DNA of 24,356 nt from Candidatus Thorarchaeota archaeon (lineage in GTDB: Archaea > Asgardarchaeota > Thorarchaeia > Thorarchaeales > Thorarchaeaceae): contig JAWAQK010000006.1 in NCBI GenBank assembly GCA_038893995.1, positions 1 through 24,356 on the forward strand, in the 5' to 3' direction. Below are positions 7,051-23,803 of the stretch, one piece after another (within the stretch, counting starts at the first letter, position 1; each line of letters begins with the position of its first letter). Below the pieces are notes generated by a model. The model was not told where the DNA came from. It worked only from the letters and a program-made list of their open reading frames with translations, and made no database searches. Both the position numbers and the translations under genes were made by a program.

Positions 7051-8913
7051 TTGCAGGCGTGGGAGTATCTGACGTCCCTGATGGGGCCGACCGATCGTGA
7101 TAGGGCGGCAGCACTAAGTCACCATCTACTGAAATTCATTGATGATTCTGCACGGCTCTGCCAGCCTGAGCGTATCCGTATCTTTGGTGACTCTGCCAGC
7201 GATGTTGACGAGGTCAGACGCATGGCCCTCCGTACTGGCGAGGAGTTCCAGCTGGCGATCGACGGTCACACATGCCATTTTGATGGGTACTTCGACCTGG
7301 CTAGAGACACAGGTAACACACGTTACCTGGTACCCCCAGGCGAATATCTGGATCCGACACTTAACCAGCTGGAACGTGAGGCCGGTCTCAACGAGATGCA
7401 TCGATTGCTCAGAGGCTCGATGGCTGGCAAGGACATGATCGTGCAGTTTCGTTCTCTCGGTCCAGTAGGTTCCACGTTCTCGATGCTTGCGCTTCAGATA
7501 ACGGACTCATACTACGTGGCCCACAGTACGAACATCCTCTACCGGTCTGCCTATAGGGTCTTCGTTGACAGCGAGACTCTCGGTCCCGTCCTTAGAGTGC
7601 TCCATTCTGCAGGACGTACTGAGAATGGTGTTTCAGCTGATGTGGCACACCGTAGGGTCTACATTGACCTGCTCGACGAGACTGTCTATAGCGTCAACAA
7701 CCAGTATGCCGGCAACTCTCTGGGCCTCAAGAAACTGGCCTTTCGTCTGGCAATTCGAAGGGCGCATCGGGAAGGTTGGCTTGCTGAACACATGTTCCTG
7801 ATGGGTGTACATGGTCCTGGCGGTCGTAAGGCATACTTCGCCGGCGCATTTCCCTCTGCTTGTGGTAAGACCAGTACCTGCATGGTACCCGGCGAGAGTG
7901 TGATAGGTGACGATATCTCGTACATCCGGAATGTCGGCGGGGTGACAAGGGCGGTCAACGTGGAACAGGGCATCTTTGGCATCATCCACGGTGTGAGTGA
8001 GGCGCATGATCCGATCATCTTTCGAGCGTTGATGACACCTGGGGAGGTCATCTTCTCGAACGTCCTGGTACATGATGGCACTCCGTACTGGTTGGGGGAC
8101 GGAAGAGAGCATCCCAGTAGTGGTCGTAACTTTGCCGGTGCATGGCGGCCCGGACTGAAGGGACCTGACGGGGCTGAGGTGCCTCTCGCACACGAGAATG
8201 CGAGGTATACAATGGGGCTGTCCAAGCTTGACAATGTGGACCCCGAGTTCAACAGTCCCCAGGGCGTCCCGTTGAGTGCGATACTCTATGGTGGTCGCGA
8301 CAGCGACACGAACGTGCCACTCAGGGAGGCGTTTGACTGGCAGCATGGCGTCATCACTATTGGTGCCTGTCTGGAGTCACAGACGACATCTGCGACTATC
8401 GGGAAGAAGGGTGTACGTGCCTTCCAACCCTTTGCCAACATCGATTTCATATCAATACCTCTGGGAAGGTACATCCTCGACCATCTCAAGTTTGGCGCAG
8501 GGCTGACAAGACCTCCCTCCATCTTCGGTGTAAACTACTTCTTAATCGATTCAGAGGGGCGGTACCTGAATTCGCGTGAAGACAAGAGAGTCTGGCTCAA
8601 GTGGATGGAGCGTCGGATTGCAGGTGAGATGGACGCAATCAGATCCCCTGTTGGATATCTGCCGCTATACTCGGACCTCAGGAGCCTCTTTAGGGTCGTC
8701 TTGGCCAAGGACTACTCACATGCGGACTACGAGATCCAGTTCTCAGTCCGAATAGCACGTCTGTTGGAGAGAAACGAACGGATGAGGACAATATACAGCA
8801 ACATTCGAGAGGTGCCGCGAGAGCTGTTTCTTGAACTGGATGCGGAGAGAGAACGACTACTTAGGGCGCGAGACATGTACGGTGATCTTGCCAGCCCGGA
8901 GTCATTCGTCTGA
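7051..8913 (+). CDS. pckG: Phosphoenolpyruvate carboxykinase (GTP)
   Basis: Motifs YAGNSLGLKKLAFRL, GWLAEHMFLMG, AFPSACGKTST (P-loop), IGDDI, HENARY and GGRDSDT. The TTG start is uncertain. Confidence 0.95.
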   Translation: MQAWEYLTSLMGPTDRDRAAALSHHLLKFIDDSARLCQPERIRIFGDSASDVDEVRRMALRTGEEFQLAIDGHTCHFDGYFDLARDTGNTRYLVPPGEYLDPTLNQLEREAGLNEMHRLLRGSMAGKDMIVQFRSLGPVGSTFSMLALQITDSYYVAHSTNILYRSAYRVFVDSETLGPVLRVLHSAGRTENGVSADVAHRRVYIDLLDETVYSVNNQYAGNSLGLKKLAFRLAIRRAHREGWLAEHMFLMGVHGPGGRKAYFAGAFPSACGKTSTCMVPGESVIGDDISYIRNVGGVTRAVNVEQGIFGIIHGVSEAHDPIIFRALMTPGEVIFSNVLVHDGTPYWLGDGREHPSSGRNFAGAWRPGLKGPDGAEVPLAHENARYTMGLSKLDNVDPEFNSPQGVPLSAILYGGRDSDTNVPLREAFDWQHGVITIGACLESQTTSATIGKKGVRAFQPFANIDFISIPLGRYILDHLKFGAGLTRPPSIFGVNYFLIDSEGRYLNSREDKRVWLKWMERRIAGEMDAIRSPVGYLPLYSDLRSLFRVVLAKDYSHADYEIQFSVRIARLLERNERMRTIYSNIREVPRELFLELDAERERLLRARDMYGDLASPESFV

Positions 8914-11295
8914 GCCCCCTTCGAACCTTCTGACTCTCACTAGGATTGAGTTGAACCCCGGTGTATGACCGAACGCCGTGTGTCGGTCCTCAGTCAAGAC
9001 GTTGACGTTTCCATCGTCATTCCACCACCCATCGGAGAGCCAGATGACTCGTGGGTCGATGTCATTCGTGACCTCAAGACGAATGTCTGGTAGGACTCCA
9101 TGTCTTGACTCGATCGTGACCCTGTCGCCATCACTGAGTCCGAGTGACCTTGCGGTGTCCGGATGCATCCTGACGAACGATCTCCTTCCCCTCACTTCGT
9201 CCCGACATGGCATCCTGATGGGCTGGACGATCACCCCGAAGGGACAGTAGTCAAGCTCGCACTCCCTGCATCCTATGCACAGACTTGGGTCCCAACTCGG
9301 TACCAATAGACTGGTGATTTCCAGAGGGACTGCCAGAGGTCTGCTATCCGATCTGACTGAGAGGCCTCTGACGTGTTCGGTCAGTCTGACCCTCAGTTTT
9401 GCTCGAGCGTTGGTCATGCCTTCTTCCGCCGCGGCGACAATCTGTGCAGCGCTTGGCGGCACGAGGGAGATCGCCTTGTCCGGACACTTCTCGACGCATC
9501 TCTGGCAGGTCGTGCACTGGGCGAAGCTCTTGACTGAACCGCCTGTACTGACTGTGGTGTACTGCGAGTGAAGCCTGTCTCTCAGCCTTCCCGAGATCAT
9601 GATGAGCGGATAGTCCCTGTACAGATCGGGCGTGCTGACAGGACTCTCTGCAGGCTCCTCGTGGAAGGGCAATGGATCGTATCCCATCTCGAGAAGGGTC
9701 CTCGAATACAGCTCGACCTTACCCGATGGTGTGTTGAATACACGGTTGGCAAACGGTATCACCTCTGACTTCGTACGTATTCCCTCGGGATGCTCTATGA
9801 GGCTCTCGAGTGAGATGTGAGCGCATTCCTCTGACCTCAACGCCTCACGAATGAGGTCGAGCTCATCGGCCTGGAAATAGTGACCGAGACCAAGCCTCTC
9901 TGCAATACCACGCCATATGTCGAGTTCGCTCCGGCACTCTCCCACTGGCTCGATCAACTTCGGTGCGTACTGTACGATACGGTGTAGCTCGCTGTACACC
10001 AAGTTGTGATGCTCGAATATGAAGGTGGCTGGCAAGACGATGTCACACATTCGTGCCGTGTCGGTCATCTCAAGATCGATACAGACCTTGAACGGAATTC
10101 TCTTCAATGCCTCAACGGTGAGACCGGTGTTGGGCCACTGAGTGAGCGGGCTTGCTGCCTGGATGACCAACACACGCAGTGGGCAGGTCGTGGAGTTCAT
10201 GATGAGCCGGGGCAAGTAAGTCGCGGACGGTACGACCGGTCTGACAGACTCGTCCAGTAGGTGGTCGAGAGTGACGCCTCGGTTGTTGAAGGGACTGCAG
10301 TCTGATGAGAGGTACTGGAAACCGCCGCCACTGACTCCAAGATAACCACATATTGCGAGGAGACTGTGTACCGCCCTTGCAGCCCAAGTACCGTTCGTGT
10401 AGTGGTTCATTCCAGCCGGGGCCGTCATGATCAGCCCTGGCCCATGCGTAGCAAAGGTCACTGCGATGTCCCGAATGATGCTCGGACTGACCCACGTGAG
10501 ACTACTCACTCGCTGCACGTCATACTCGCGCACTCTCTGACAGTACTCCTCGAAGCCCACGACATACTTCTCCACGAAATCGCGATTCCACAGCCCTCTC
10601 TCTATTATCACGTTGGCGATACCCAGTGCCAGTGCACCATCGGTCCCCGGTCGTATTGTCGTATATATGTGGGCCATCTTTGCATGCGGAGTCCTTCTGG
10701 GGTCGATCACTATCAGCTTGGCACCTCTATCGAGTGCCTCCTGTATCACTCTCTTGCAGTGAAGACTTGACTCGAACTTGTTTGTACCCCATATGACGAG
10801 ACAACGCGAGTTCGCCCAGTCTTTCAACTCATGCGGCGGGAATGGCCCGACGTTGAAACGAGCGCCCTCATATGCTCCCTTGAAGCATATCTCTGATATC
10901 CCCGGGATCATCCTGGTCCCCAGTGCATTTGCAAACCTGGCTGCGTATCTGGGTGCCATACCATCATTTCCCGATCCCGAGTATATCCCGACTGACTGGG
11001 GCCCGAACTCTCGTCTGGCCTCATCTATTCTCTGTGCGATATCGTCCAGGGCCTCGTCCCAAGATATGCGTATGAAGGAGCCATCCGGCTGTCTTCTCAG
11101 TGGATGCTTCAGTCGGTCCCCGTAGTAGGTCCTCATTGCATGGGCGTAGCCCTTAGGACAGCACCTTCCCAGCGTGTAGGGGTGATTTGGGTCTCCAAGT
11201 ATGCGTGTTACTCTGCCATCCTCGATGACTACCTGGTACGCGCATATGTCTGGGCAGTTGAGAGCACAGGCGGAGTACTTGACTTCGCGGGGCAT
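8902..11295 (-). CDS. Mo/W-bisPGD (DMSO reductase superfamily) oxidoreductase catalytic subunit with an inserted 2x[4Fe-4S] ferredoxin module
   Basis: N-terminal Fe-S motif CALNCPDIC...GRCCPKG, RLKHPL, ISWDEALD, IDPRRT, IRPGTDGALALG, TDTARMCDIVLPA and TPSGKVEL. C-terminal MHPDTARSLGLSDGDRV...NVNVLT. No Tat signal. Candidate Cys ligand in EICFKG. SD GGAGGAG upstream. Confidence 0.92.
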   Translation of the reverse strand: MPREVKYSACALNCPDICAYQVVIEDGRVTRILGDPNHPYTLGRCCPKGYAHAMRTYYGDRLKHPLRRQPDGSFIRISWDEALDDIAQRIDEARREFGPQSVGIYSGSGNDGMAPRYAARFANALGTRMIPGISEICFKGAYEGARFNVGPFPPHELKDWANSRCLVIWGTNKFESSLHCKRVIQEALDRGAKLIVIDPRRTPHAKMAHIYTTIRPGTDGALALGIANVIIERGLWNRDFVEKYVVGFEEYCQRVREYDVQRVSSLTWVSPSIIRDIAVTFATHGPGLIMTAPAGMNHYTNGTWAARAVHSLLAICGYLGVSGGGFQYLSSDCSPFNNRGVTLDHLLDESVRPVVPSATYLPRLIMNSTTCPLRVLVIQAASPLTQWPNTGLTVEALKRIPFKVCIDLEMTDTARMCDIVLPATFIFEHHNLVYSELHRIVQYAPKLIEPVGECRSELDIWRGIAERLGLGHYFQADELDLIREALRSEECAHISLESLIEHPEGIRTKSEVIPFANRVFNTPSGKVELYSRTLLEMGYDPLPFHEEPAESPVSTPDLYRDYPLIMISGRLRDRLHSQYTTVSTGGSVKSFAQCTTCQRCVEKCPDKAISLVPPSAAQIVAAAEEGMTNARAKLRVRLTEHVRGLSVRSDSRPLAVPLEITSLLVPSWDPSLCIGCRECELDYCPFGVIVQPIRMPCRDEVRGRRSFVRMHPDTARSLGLSDGDRVTIESRHGVLPDIRLEVTNDIDPRVIWLSDGWWNDDGNVNVLTEDRHTAFGHTPGFNSILVRVRRFEGGSDE

Positions 11296-11373: not shown

Positions 11374-11402
11374 TGATGTACATTCCTGTACATCAATGTA
11401 CT
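11374..11402. promoter_or_regulatory. Three phased TGTACA/TGTACT boxes, matching the TrpY TRP-box consensus
   Basis: TGTACA 11377-11382, TGTACA 11387-11392 and TGTACT 11397-11402, with a 10-bp period and 4-bp spacers. The first two form a perfect 9-bp inverted repeat, TGATGTACA-TTCC-TGTACATCA. They lie directly upstream of the trpB2 leader TATA box. Confidence 0.7.
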
Positions 11403-11410
11403 TAATAGGA

Positions 11411-11424
11411 CAATACTTATAAGG
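11411..11424 (+). promoter_or_regulatory. TATA-box promoter of the trpB2-1 leader transcript
   Basis: CAATACTTATAAGG, with TTATAA at 11417-11422. A near-identical CAATGCTTATAAGA sits at the equivalent position before trpB2-2. Confidence 0.72.
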
Positions 11425-11468
11425 GGGTTCACGGCATCGCCCGGTCGGTCTACCCTGAGGTGATTCGA

Positions 11469-11522
11469 ATGGTGAGCGTGTGTCTGCTCCACTGGTATTG
11501 GGGTCCGAGAGGACCCGTCTAG
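11469..11522 (+). CDS. Trp-containing leader peptide (uORF) of trpB2-1: MVSVCLLHWYWGPRGPV
   Basis: SD GAGGTGA (11457-11463), ATG 11469, two TGG codons (positions 9 and 11) and TAG 11520-11522. A same-length homolog lies upstream of the second trpB2. Confidence 0.75.
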   Translation: MVSVCLLHWYWGPRGPV

Positions 11523-11532
11523 TCAGCTCACC
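11497..11532 (+). repeat. 36-nt sequence repeated exactly at 22299-22334
   Basis: ATTGGGGTCCGAGAGGACCCGTCTAGTCAGCTCACC is present in both trpB2 leaders. Confidence 0.97.
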
Positions 11533-11682
11533 GTCCACCGAGGGTATCTCTTCTGTTTCTCTTGCGCGCTCGGCACCCACTGAGTGGAAGGGCGGATTGA
11601 GCTCTCAGATGTCAGTGGTCTCCGCACGGTACTCCATCAACATCTCAGGACAGACCACCTCAGAACAATGGTGAGATCCGAG

Positions 11683-12993
11683 ATGAAGACAGAATTCACA
11701 CGAGTGATCTTGAACCAAGAAGACCTTCCGAAGAACTATGTGAACATCGTACCGCATCTGAGAAGTCCTCTGCCCCCTCCCATCGATCCTCGCACGTCTC
11801 AGCCGATCGACCCCGAGGCGCTGAAGGCACTCTTTCCTGTCGAATGCATAAGACAGGAGGTGAGTACGGCCAGGGAGATCCGGATACCGGACGAACTCCG
11901 CGAGGCATACCTACAGATAGGACGTCCGACCCCACTCCAGAGAGCCGTGCATCTCGAGGCGGCCCTGAAGACACCAGCTAGGATATACTTCAAGCGAGAG
12001 GACACATCTCCAACTGGGAGCCACAAGCTCAATACAGCATTGGCACAGGCCTACTTCGCATCGAAGGAGGGTACTGAGAGGCTCGCCACGGAGACCGGTG
12101 CAGGGCAATGGGGGAGCGCTGTTGCGTACGCCGCGGCGCACTTCGGTCTGAAGGCCACCATCTACATGGTCAGTGCAAGCTACGAGCAGAAACCCTACCG
12201 AGGCATCATGATGAGGATGTATGGAGCCGATGTGACTCCCTCGCCATCCGACCGTACTGAGGTGGGTCGAAAGATCAGGGCTACTGACCCAAACCATCCC
12301 GGCTCTCTCGGGATAGCCATCAGCGAGGCTCTCGAAGACACCATGAATAGTCCAAACACCAAATACACACTCGGCTCGGTCCTGAATCATGTCCTGCTAC
12401 ATCAGACAGTGATCGGACAGGAGGTCGTCCAGCAGCTCAGGATGATTGGTGAGACTCCCGATGTGATAGTGGGATGTGTCGGCGGTGGTAGCAACTTTGC
12501 AGGCATGAGCTATCCCTTTCTGGCGCGGTCCGAATACCGTGATGTCGATTTCCTGGCCGTGGAACCTGTCGTTTGCGGAAAGATGACTAGGGGAGAGTAT
12601 CGTTACGACTATGGCGATTCTGCTGGCCTGACACCCATGTTGAAGATGCACACGCTCGGGGCAGACTTCACCCCGCCGCGGATTCATGCAGGAGGTCTCA
12701 GGTATCACGGTGTCGCTCCGACCATCAGTGCACTGATACTGGAGGGCCGCATCCGGCCAGTGGCATATGAGCAGGTCGAGGTGCTTGAGGCCGGCCGACT
12801 CTTCGCTCGTTCAGAGGGAATCGTGCCCGCTCCCGAGTCGTCTCACGCCATAAAGGCGGTCATTGATCTTGCCCTCAAGGCCAAGCAGGAGAAGCGGGAG
12901 CGTGTCATCGTGTTCAACCTCTCCGGTCACGGTCACTTCGACATGGCGGCCTACGGCTCTCTGATGGACGGGACGCTCGGCAGCGCAGCCTAA
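11683..12993 (+). CDS. trpB2: Tryptophan synthase beta chain, TrpB2 type (copy 1)
   Basis: PLP lysine motif [38 protein letters not shown], the TrpB2-specific HAGGLRYHG, and [12 protein letters not shown] 11683 follows GGTGAG and aligns with the copy 2 N-terminus; ATG 11668 is an alternative start. Confidence 0.95.
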
Positions 12994-13187
12994 TTTCTCC
13001 CGACATGTGGGCTGAAGGGCCTGTGACAGTCGCTGGGGTCCGCCTTGGGAAACCGGGGTGAACCCCTAATGACTCCTGCTGCGGGAATGTTCTTAATCTG
13101 CCGAGTAGGTCACCGGGGTCAGCAGCTCCGCATCTGTATCTTGTGTCTGAGATTCAGACATGTTCTCAACAGGGAGTGAAAGTCAGG

Positions 13188-22210: not shown

Positions 22211-22224
22211 CAATGCTTATAAGA
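22211..22224 (+). promoter_or_regulatory. TATA-box promoter of the trpB2-2 leader transcript
   Basis: CAATGCTTATAAGA, with TTATAA at 22217-22222; homologous to 11411-11424. Confidence 0.72.
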
Positions 22225-22266
22225 GGCAACCCGCGGTCTCTCTCTGGACCTATCCCGAGGAGCGAC

Positions 22267-22486
22267 ACAGATGGTGCGAGTTGGTCTACGCCACTGTCAT
22301 TGGGGTCCGAGAGGACCCGTCTAGTCAGCTCACCATCTGTCGCCAGGACCAATTCTCATTCTGCCTCGCACATTCTGAGCTCTGGAGTAGTCTCCGGTCC
22401 AGACTCATTCTTCGCACCCAGTCTTGGGACTGGACATCCTGCGGACTCGGGAAGGACCCTCCCAGAACAGGAAGTGAAAATAAGAC
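22267..22486 (+). promoter_or_regulatory. Structured 5' leader / candidate attenuator of trpB2-2
   Basis: GAGA-loop hairpin 22303-22318; helices 22267-22276/22331-22340, 22327-22332/22376-22381 and 22376-22386/22398-22407, the last followed by TTCTTC. Confidence 0.65.
22271..22324 (+). CDS. Trp-containing leader peptide (uORF) of trpB2-2: MVRVGLRHCHWGPRGPV
   Basis: SD GAGGAG (22257-22262), ATG 22271, TGG at codon 11 and TAG 22322-22324. Same length and frame as 11469-11522. Confidence 0.72.
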   Translation: MVRVGLRHCHWGPRGPV

Positions 22487-23803
22487 ATGACCAGACCAAT
22501 ACGAGTTACACTTGGCATTGAAGACTTACCAAGAAGCTATGTGAATATCGTACCATACCTGAGGGAACCGCTTCCTCCCGCAGTTGACCCAGTGACATCC
22601 GAACCTGTCACTGTGGAGAGACTGTCTGCAGTATTCCCCACTGAGTGTGCGAGGCAGGAGTTGTGTACAGACCCGGAGATACCGATTCCAGAAGAACTCC
22701 GTGAGTCCTACATACAGATAGGTCGACCAACGCCCCTCCAGAGAGCAGTCCACCTCGAGCAGAAGCTCAGGACCCCGGCAAGGATCTATTTCAAGAGGGA
22801 AGACCTGTCTCCAACGGGGAGTCATAAGCTCAACACTGCTCTTGCACAGGCGTACTTTGCGCTGAAAGACGGTGCACAGCGCCTCACTGCAGAGACGGGA
22901 GCCGGACAATGGGGCTGTGCCGTCGCTCTTGCTGCATCACACTTTGGTCTTAGTGCCTCGATCTATATGGTGCGGACAAGCTTTGAGCAAAAGCCCTACA
23001 GGACATTCATGATGAGGATGTATGGTGCAGAAGTCATCCAGTCTCCATCGGAACTGACTGAGTCCGGCAAGAGGGTCCGTGCGAATTCCCCTGAACATCC
23101 CGGATCCATCGGCATTGCCATCAGCGAGGCCGTCGAAGACACGCTACACAGTCCTGGTACCAAGTACGCAAACGGTTCTGTGATGAACCACGTACTCCTT
23201 CACCAGACTGTCATAGGCCAGGAAGTGGTTCAACAACTGAGGAAGGTCGATGAGACGCCAGATGCAGTCGTGGGATGTGTGGGAGGCGGCAGCAACTTCG
23301 CAGGGATAAGCTATCCCATGATGGTCAGACCTGAATACAGAGATGTCAGCTTCATTGCGGTTGAACCTGATGCGTGCAATAAGATGACGAGAGGCGAGTA
23401 CCGGTATGACTTCATCGACTCAGCTGGTCTGCTCCCAAGGCTGAAGATGCACACACTCGGTGCAGACTTCACGCCAAGGCGAATACATGCGGGTGGACTC
23501 AGATATCACGGTGTGTCGCCCACGGTCAGCGTCCTCATCAATGAGCGACGAGTTCATCCCGTCGCCTATGACCAGGTGGCTGTCCTAGAGGCTGGCCGGC
23601 TCTTTGCCCAGACAGAGGGGATCGTCCCCGCTCCTGAGTCTTCCCACGCAATAAGAGCAGCCATTGACCTTGCGACTGCGGCTCGAAGAGATGACAGAGA
23701 GATGGTCATTGTCTTCAATCTCTCTGGTCATGGCCATTTTGACATGGGTGCCTATGGTATGCTCATGGATGGTGCACTGGCCATGCCCCCGCTCGCCGCA
23801 TGA
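22487..23803 (+). CDS. trpB2: Tryptophan synthase beta chain, TrpB2 type (copy 2, divergent)
   Basis: Motifs [39 protein letters not shown] and NLSGHGHFD; colinear with copy 1. Confidence 0.95.
   Translation: MTRPIRVTLGIEDLPRSYVNIVPYLREPLPPAVDPVTSEPVTVERLSAVFPTECARQELCTDPEIPIPEELRESYIQIGRPTPLQRAVHLEQKLRTPARIYFKREDLSPTGSHKLNTALAQAYFALKDGAQRLTAETGAGQWGCAVALAASHFGLSASIYMVRTSFEQKPYRTFMMRMYGAEVIQSPSELTESGKRVRANSPEHPGSIGIAISEAVEDTLHSPGTKYANGSVMNHVLLHQTVIGQEVVQQLRKVDETPDAVVGCVGGGSNFAGISYPMMVRPEYRDVSFIAVEPDACNKMTRGEYRYDFIDSAGLLPRLKMHTLGADFTPRRIHAGGLRYHGVSPTVSVLINERRVHPVAYDQVAVLEAGRLFAQTEGIVPAPESSHAIRAAIDLATAARRDDREMVIVFNLSGHGHFDMGAYGMLMDGALAMPPLAA

Follow-up and report, generated by a model that had tools for sequence, protein, structure and literature searches.

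For decades, frameshifting at hungry codons has been treated as a mistake that starved cells make. A 2016 review knew of no useful product of starvation-specific frameshifting, and it describes regulatory frameshifting induced by ketolides in the bacterial ermCL leader (PMC5009743). Some ribosomes there shift frame within the upstream open reading frame (uORF), enter the spacer and unfold its structure, the downstream gene then starts, and the peptide is unimportant. Frameshifting of the dnaX/IS type uses a slippery heptamer, X_XXY_YYZ, whose -1 stimulators include an internal Shine-Dalgarno (SD) sequence 9-14 nt before the site (PMC5009743) and a 3' stem-loop, and the +1 autoregulation of prfB uses a slow A-site codon as its sensor. 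Attenuators of the E. coli trpL type (Rfam Trp_leader) combine a short SD-led uORF containing tandem Trp codons with mutually exclusive 2:3/3:4 hairpins and an intrinsic terminator, and E. coli TnaC carries Trp several codons before a Pro-containing end. Within archaea, Trp control is known to act on the DNA, through TrpY, which binds TRP boxes, and Tar (PMC6737238). Translation of neighboring genes in Haloferax can be coupled by termination-reinitiation, most commonly at AUGA overlaps (PMC6728339, PMC10666635), where a distance of 13-14 nt leaves 40-60% of reinitiation and one of 22-23 nt leaves none (PMC10666635). Our literature search, which covered few subscription journals, found no report of leaders like those considered here.

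The window analysed is a stretch of 24,356 nt from a Candidatus Thorarchaeota genome and carries two genes for stand-alone TrpB2 (TIGR01415, NF009057: 630/589 and 672/627 bits against curated cut-offs of 518.85 and 366). A sequence-only reading of this DNA had placed a TATA box, an SD and a 17-codon uORF ahead of each gene. Both uORFs were confirmed with the translations claimed, as were the TATA boxes and the SD sequences (11457-11463 and 22257-22262), and the spacers to trpB2 measure 160 and 162 nt for copies 1 and 2, respectively. The 16S rRNA of the source genome ends in a standard anti-SD. Neither leader shows a single difference between contigs of two DNA runs, of which one is possibly the source and the other a second sample from the same study. 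In the source genome, which is 91% complete, neither trpA nor trpE was found, and tRNA-Trp is absent from its assembly. The sequence-only reading had also noted the likeness of the two leaders. Because a quick tree groups the two trpB2 genes as sister paralogues (SH-aLRT 99), and because they share a block of 36 identical nucleotides (11497-11532 and 22299-22334) in which even the third codon positions all agree and which extends 10 nt beyond the uORF1 stop, this match is not independent and says little by itself; conservation across the whole family does exceed chance.

The trpB2 genes of 87 genomes of the order were picked by their protein, with the leader ignored. This survey, of a kind that the sequence-only reading had proposed, yielded 57 intact Thorarchaeota trpB2 genes with an assembled leader region; 56 of them have the leader, and the sole leaderless gene belongs to a distant TrpB2 clade. 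We analysed the 55 complete leaders, which represent 13 genera, and give positions relative to W, where the conserved UGG begins, and to B, the trpB2 start. The parts follow one another in this order: TGTACA boxes, TATA box, SD, start codon, CCA followed by A or C and UGG, a hairpin, and a stop usually at W+27. Start codons lie in frame with UGG at four distances, W-21, -24, -27 or -30; the AUGs near the SD fall in that frame at a fraction of 0.82, against 0.12 and 0 in the other two, and insertions within the hairpin are 3 or 6 nt long. The in-frame starts and the size of these insertions argue for translation, and on this comparative evidence uORF1 is a real, translated leader ORF. The expectation that homologous leaders keep start, frame and Trp thus held. 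The Trp of the family is codon 9, encoded by UGG in 54 of 55 leaders with copy 2 of the window as the exception. The placement of the leader family in the Thorarchaeota comes from pattern matches that carry organism names. A leader ahead of other genes was rejected: all archaeal pattern matches with enough downstream DNA precede trpB2, and the 11 bacterial matches were consistent with chance. A loose leader pattern run across the 87 genomes was uninformative. An Rfam search gave no match for the leader on the + strand at E up to 5, and a riboswitch or T-box was set aside for want of a model match and in view of the frame evidence, which favors translation.

Table 1. Features of the trpB2 leaders in the window and of related leaders in other genomes (window positions unless a contig or locus is named).
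Feature	Position	Strand	Remarks
TGTACA-type boxes (TRP boxes), three, 10-nt spacing	11377..11402	+	upstream of the copy-1 promoter; probable TrpY sites
TATA box, copy 1	11416..11423	+	from sequence; distance to the Trp codon fixed across the family
Helix P0 5' arm, copy 1	11447..11462	+	transcript 5' end; overlaps the uORF1 SD; from folding
uORF1, copy 1, 17 codons	11469..11522	+	sensor Trp is codon 9, 11493-11495
Internal SD-like element, 5' arm of helix P1	11474..11480	+	pairs with about 11526-11534
Proposed frame-change site C_CAC_UGG	11489..11495	+	family form C_CAA_UGG; from conservation, function inferred
uORF2, -1 frame, copy 1	11492..11674	+	begins at the Trp codon; its stop is within the trpB2 SD, 8 nt before AUG
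Hairpin P2, source of the GPRGP residues	11501..11516	+	5 nt 3' of the Trp codon; from covariation
Pyrimidine-rich tract, candidate aCPSF1/FttA termination site	11547..11563	+	from sequence
Helix P0 3' arm, copy 1	11641..11656	+	ends 27 nt before the trpB2 AUG
trpB2 copy 1, stand-alone TrpB2	11683..12993	+	NF009057 and TIGR01415 above cut-offs
TATA box, copy 2	22216..22223	+	from sequence; no TGTACA boxes upstream
Helix P0 5' arm, copy 2	22246..22259	+	pairs with 22446-22458
uORF1, copy 2	22271..22324	+	codon 9 is UGU (Cys); W11 (22301-22303) is the sole Trp left; P2 at 22303-22318
-1 open frame, copy 2	22294..22521	+	ends 32 nt inside trpB2 (35-nt overlap)
trpB2 copy 2, faster-evolving sister paralogue	22487..23803	+	NF009057 and TIGR01415 above cut-offs
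Two-step leaders upstream of trpB2	L024, L025, L027, L275, L188, L265, L273, L276, L280, L295-L299, L302, L303		
hisG leader of the source genome (L329)	G000 C10, uORF start near 54356	-	others are L330-L342
Trp-rich leaders of family f9	L268-L271, L304, L305, L309-L328		

The main feature of these leaders had been overlooked: a second open frame, in the -1 register, that leads from the Trp codon to the trpB2 start. It is open in every complete leader (55/55, median 62 codons) and ends near that start. Between W+30 and B-20 the -1 frame contains 3 stops in 2566 codons, whereas the two remaining frames have 129 and 143; the depletion persists to B-20 and ends there. Dinucleotide shuffles put the chance of finding all 13 genera open at about 7e-12, a probability that the kinship of the genera makes optimistic; spacer sequences are saturated between genera (similarity 0.49, against 0.47 when shuffled). 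A further 14 leaders from metagenomes, held out and found by a pattern that excluded the spacer, have no stop in the -1 frame and 40 and 38 in the other two. The most depleted sense codon of the -1 frame is UGG itself (6, against 30 and 47), as expected if this frame must be read when Trp is short; copy 1 is unusual in that its -1 frame contains two UGG codons. The frame was rejected as a protein gene by its neutral substitution pattern (126/111/121 by codon position, with 1-nt indels tolerated) and by the lack of a Pfam match for the uORF2 peptide. Fusion of the -1 frame to TrpB2 was likewise never seen, and where the two frames agree a stop stands 3-6 nt before AUG. In 41 of 55 leaders the -1 frame stops no more than 13 nt from the trpB2 AUG, close enough for archaeal reinitiation (PMC10666635), with an AUGA overlap in 15 and a distance of 8 nt in copy 1; in 7 of the 55 the stop is more than 22 nt from the start, which counts against coupling. 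In the one trpB2 pseudogene of the set (L080, G015 C167) the uORF1 AUG has been lost, a stop has been gained two codons past Trp, and a premature stop shortens the -1 frame by about 85 nt.

The sequence at which the two frames meet is itself constrained. CCA is invariant (55/55), the CAA before UGG is never exchanged for CAG, although trpB2 genes themselves use both equally, and the preceding C is always kept despite being a third codon position. Read one base back, the site becomes CCA-AUG-G, and the -1 codon over the Trp codon is AUG in 53 of 55 leaders and CUG in the source genome. The general form is X_XA(A/C)_UGG rather than the slippery heptamer. After a -1 slip, P-site re-pairing would involve one mismatch for CAA and two for the CAC of the source genome, and would be poor at most of the his sites described below; with re-pairing this poor, the frame change may be out-of-frame decoding. 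Pairing with the anti-SD peaks within uORF1 at W-20/-19, where a weak SD-like element ends about 9-12 nt upstream of the site and doubles as an arm of helix P1, a helix that encloses uORF1 and exceeds controls in 11 of 13 genera. Downstream, hairpin P2 begins 3-6 nt past UGG in 45 of 55 leaders (mean -11.6 kcal/mol), the position of a 3' stem-loop in dnaX/IS-type -1 frameshifting, and shows double-sided changes in 4 of 6 pairs, a result equaled in 0 of 500 shuffles although relatedness inflates the figure. The site resembles dnaX in its 3' hairpin and perhaps, with its weak SD-like element inside the 9-14 nt range of -1 stimulators, the dnaX/IS3 type more broadly, and would resemble prfB in using a slow A-site codon as sensor. 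It differs from these systems in that the heptamer is missing, the slow codon is a sense codon, and no functional trans-frame protein was found.

The best explanation of these features, to which we assign a probability of roughly 0.6 on comparative sequence evidence, is a two-frame Trp sensor read by the ribosome, in which Trp shortage would cause a -1 slip at UGG and so deliver ribosomes to trpB2. Ribosomes would start at uORF1, as its conserved SD, start and frame suggest. With ample Trp-tRNA the ribosome would pass UGG and stop about nine codons on, the spacer would fold, helix P0 would mask the uORF1 SD, and trpB2 would be left without an upstream ribosome. When Trp-tRNA is short, the ribosome would pause while CAA or CAC occupies the P site and the A site is vacant, and would enter the -1 frame. 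Two elements probably help it to do so, the SD-like stretch 9-12 nt before the site and the hairpin that follows 5 nt after it. It would then read a Trp-poor frame whose product is irrelevant, in keeping with a frame that is open, depleted of UGG and neutrally evolving, and in doing so would unfold P0, cover the pyrimidine tract, stop at the trpB2 start and hand over by translational coupling. The parallel with ermCL (PMC5009743) is close: some ribosomes shift frame in a uORF, enter the spacer and unfold its structure, and the downstream gene starts while the peptide is unimportant. An alternative frame open across the spacer to the downstream start was found in all 55 leaders and all 14 held out. 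The trigger of ermCL is an antibiotic acting in bacteria, whereas here it would be a starved codon in archaea, and unlike in ermCL selection preserves an open new frame all the way to the start codon. The last step resembles termination-reinitiation in Haloferax (PMC6728339, PMC10666635) in that an upstream frame ends at or near a downstream start provided with an SD, and differs in that this frame would be a conditional, peptide-irrelevant delivery frame and not a gene. In sum the trpB2 leader would be a leader-peptide sensor in its input and ermCL-like in its output, and the defining features of trpL, TnaC and dnaX-type systems were not found in its sequence.

The same two-frame switch could also be entered by a different route, in which the ribosome stalls, the peptide is released or the ribosome rescued, and translation restarts at a start codon overlapping the Trp codon. 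We consider this unlikely, although termination-reinitiation is established in archaea (PMC6728339) and A-UGG shares the geometry of an AUGA overlap. The AUG of the 53 Thorarchaeota leaders recurs at the G_GAA and C_CAA sites of other families, and in both window copies a UUG overlaps W11. However, the AUG is replaced by CUG in the source genome and four other families and by UCA in his leaders, and two leaders (L298 and L342) are without any start codon. Normal initiation at the -1 AUG would moreover call for a closer SD-like element, since its aligned spacing of 15-18 nt is about 5 nt longer than the 10-12 nt at real starts, and a restart leaves the invariant CC before A unexplained.

Classical attenuation, in which a stall at UGG would refold the leader, by way of an antiterminator or an anti-SD, without any change of frame, and the open -1 frame would be secondary, we regard as improbable. 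The trpB2 leader does resemble E. coli trpL: it is structured, it lies ahead of a Trp-synthesis gene, and its short uORF has an SD and contains a Trp codon; in both, output is expected to rise on Trp shortage. The conserved uORF, helices P0 to P2 and the pyrimidine tract are compatible with such a scheme, the trpB2 genes of family f9 follow Trp-rich, trpL-like leaders that have an AUG of their own, and in a folding model a blocked uORF1 start lowers access to the trpB2 SD in 13 of 14 groups. Unlike trpL, however, the leader has a single regulatory UGG (most leaders have one Trp codon, and W11 is present in 12/55), no conserved 2:3/3:4 pair or intrinsic terminator, and a second open frame; depletion of stops and UGG in one frame over 150 nt is left unexplained. 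Neither a mutually exclusive hairpin, for which pairing of the 3' arm of P1 or P2 with downstream RNA was compared with other-genus and shuffled partners, nor a fixed anti-SD 45-80 nt before trpB2 did better than controls (7/13 and 8/13 genera), and a stall at UGG changes the modelled SD access little. The sequence-only reading had proposed that sensing of Trp-tRNA at UGG controls trpB2; a translated leader with its SD and UGG favors this part of the proposal on sequence grounds, and the hairpin switch of the classical trpL model finds no support.

Besides P1 and P2, the leaders have P0, a long-range pairing of the inferred transcript 5' end (about 11447 in copy 1, from the promoter sequence) and the uORF1 SD with B-43 to B-22. 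In all 13 genera each 5' arm pairs best with its own partner, at -19.6 kcal/mol compared with -11.5 for partners from other genera and -11.6 for shuffled ones. The whole-leader folding energy is ordinary (z -1.4 and -0.6). P0 ends 20-27 nt before AUG, and in a naked-RNA model opening the region from -35 to +13 costs 14 kcal/mol and the core trpB2 SD about 6 kcal/mol; the core SD is thus fairly open in this model, a weak point of the two-frame reading. As an on/off switch set by uORF1 initiation, P0 was dropped, since folding gave generic support alone. A run of at least 8 pyrimidines occurs in 29 of 55 leaders, compared with 7% of windows of coding DNA, and T4 in 23 of 55, again judged against coding DNA; the source genome has a gene for aCPSF1/FttA. 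The pyrimidine tract paired with neither P0 nor the SD better than in controls. In the two-frame reading, P0, termination, or both would be candidates for holding trpB2 off at high Trp. Leaders of genus g3 (L066, L070, L074) have a P0 3' arm about 30 nt before trpB2 that resembles a strong SD, followed by a mini-frame of two codons, UUG-NNN-UAA.

If the conserved core were instead an RNA or DNA element, such as a ligand aptamer, a protein site or the palindrome CCANTGG, the frames would be incidental. CCA(A)UGG is indeed invariant at the nucleotide level and the hairpin covaries, but the in-frame placement of starts with UGG, the multiples of three among hairpin insertions, the exchange of the amino-acid codon with the pathway (His before hisG) and the empty Rfam search make this very improbable. 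Hardly credible is arrest of the TnaC type, also raised by the sequence-only reading, in which a nascent peptide ending in WGPRGPV would bind Trp or indole in the tunnel and block termination: the C-terminus common to both window copies, with a conserved V at -5 and Q/H at -1, recalls the Trp and Pro of TnaC, but W11 and this ending are not a conserved signal (the full C-terminus is kept in 5/55), the GPRGP codons are hairpin P2 and their residues follow its compensatory changes, the stop shifts from W+15 to W+54, the gene is biosynthetic or salvage rather than catabolic, and depletion of UGG in the -1 frame implies activity at low, not high, Trp.

The two copies in the window appear to have diverged. 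Copy 1 looks intact as judged from its sequence, with three boxes, the site, P2, P0 and the -1 frame. The frame-change site of copy 2 is C_CAC_UGU, with the family sensor Trp lost, and its +1 frame is open as well as its -1 frame, reaching an AUGA overlap at 22487-22490. The spacer is rich in GC, and shuffling leaves a frame open with a chance of about 0.3, so that this copy proves nothing alone. The trpB2 branch of copy 2 is also longer (0.55 vs 0.15), and its protein differs at positions common to five other aligned TrpB2 sequences, so far as sequence can tell a sign that its specificity may have changed. Examples of these differences are TL to AN before GSV and G to I in the D-x-G-D loop. 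Copy 2 has probably been released from Trp control or re-wired, possibly by a switch to +1 at CAU_UGG or to Cys sensing.

Boxes of the form TGTACA, which we take to be the TRP box consensus, are present at least once in 54 of 55 leaders and at least twice in 45, and would add a transcriptional layer through TrpY. The source genome has a TrpY-like gene (L264, G000 C43:15827-16318) that scores 159.6 bits, below the cut-off of 180, and starts GUG-UGG; its Trp codon 2 is a possible further check point for Trp-tRNA. These promoter boxes and the Trp codon 2 resemble the TrpY/TRP-box system of Methanothermobacter, which is a DNA-level layer, described with no two-frame leader (PMC6737238). At L163-L180, in several families, the trpB2 leader is short and has no uORF, and trpY is divergent with TGTACA boxes in between.

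Comparable leaders occur beyond the Thorarchaeota. In seven further Asgard families (16 loci), a uORF of 3-9 codons with G_GAC_UGG, G_GAA_UGG or C_CAA_UGG precedes trpB2, and the GAA/GAC alternation parallels the change from CAA to CAC in the source genome. The -1 frame of these two-step leaders is open for roughly 40-80 codons and has a Trp-rich tail, 75-190 nt before trpB2 and ahead of a hairpin or U-rich stretch. Relative to the downstream ORF, X_XA(A/C)_UGG lies in -1 17 times, in +1 twice and in 0 never, compared with 14/32/10 for other UGG codons, and the -1 relation holds in 7 of 7 families (p 5e-4). The codon over the Trp codon is mostly CUG, one locus has no start codon anywhere in the long frame, and the 3' stem-loop is variable. 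Family f9 has plain Trp-rich leader ORFs (WxWxW), mostly with their own AUG, 150-195 nt before trpB2 in 23 of 30 loci.

The same arrangement is found with another amino acid. All 14 Thorarchaeota hisG leaders, including that of the source genome, contain a uORF that follows an SD and has His as its sixth codon, and their -1 frame is open in 14 of 14 (0 stops, against 47 and 39), is poor in His codons (6, against 18 and 19) and ends at the hisG start, being fused to HisG in three. Two hisG leaders have no start codon close to the frame-change site, and in one leader the -1 frame opens only 4 nt before the His codon and continues for 60 nt without one. Ahead of trpE, at 14 loci in five Asgard families (L133-L146), a short uORF with an SD contains NUU_UGG or CAU_UGG, and the gene is in the +1 frame relative to it, often without a start codon of its own, a geometry like that of prfB. 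In two families (L186, L187, L189, L190) a +1 change at NUU_UGG leads into an unannotated helix-turn-helix ORF that overlaps the trpB2 start and is reached from the short uORF only by that change. Taken together, these sequences tip the balance slightly toward a general amino-acid sensor in Asgard archaea based on programmed frameshifting at starved codons (-1 for trpB2 and hisG, +1 for trpE and for the regulator gene coupled to trpB2), in which the change of frame rather than an RNA hairpin switch would turn on biosynthesis genes.

If this is true, the trpB2 and hisG leaders represent a case of hungry-codon frameshifting put to use. They would do so in the archaea most closely related to eukaryotes, whereas control by amino acids through uORFs is otherwise known as a theme of eukaryotes and bacteria. 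With a length below 260 nt, the leader yields sharp predictions, and one implication is that gene-calling programs place the starts of Asgard trpE and of some hisG genes wrongly or overlook them. Elsewhere in the window, positions 13020-13085 match the fluoride riboswitch weakly (24 bits against a gathering threshold of 34; E 0.008); they lie between trpB2 copy 1 and a gene for a 1107-aa protein with a GNAT domain. A molybdopterin oxidoreductase gene (8902-11295, - strand) is divergent from the copy-1 promoter, and its product has two 4Fe-4S motifs inserted ahead of the C-terminal dinucleotide-binding domain.
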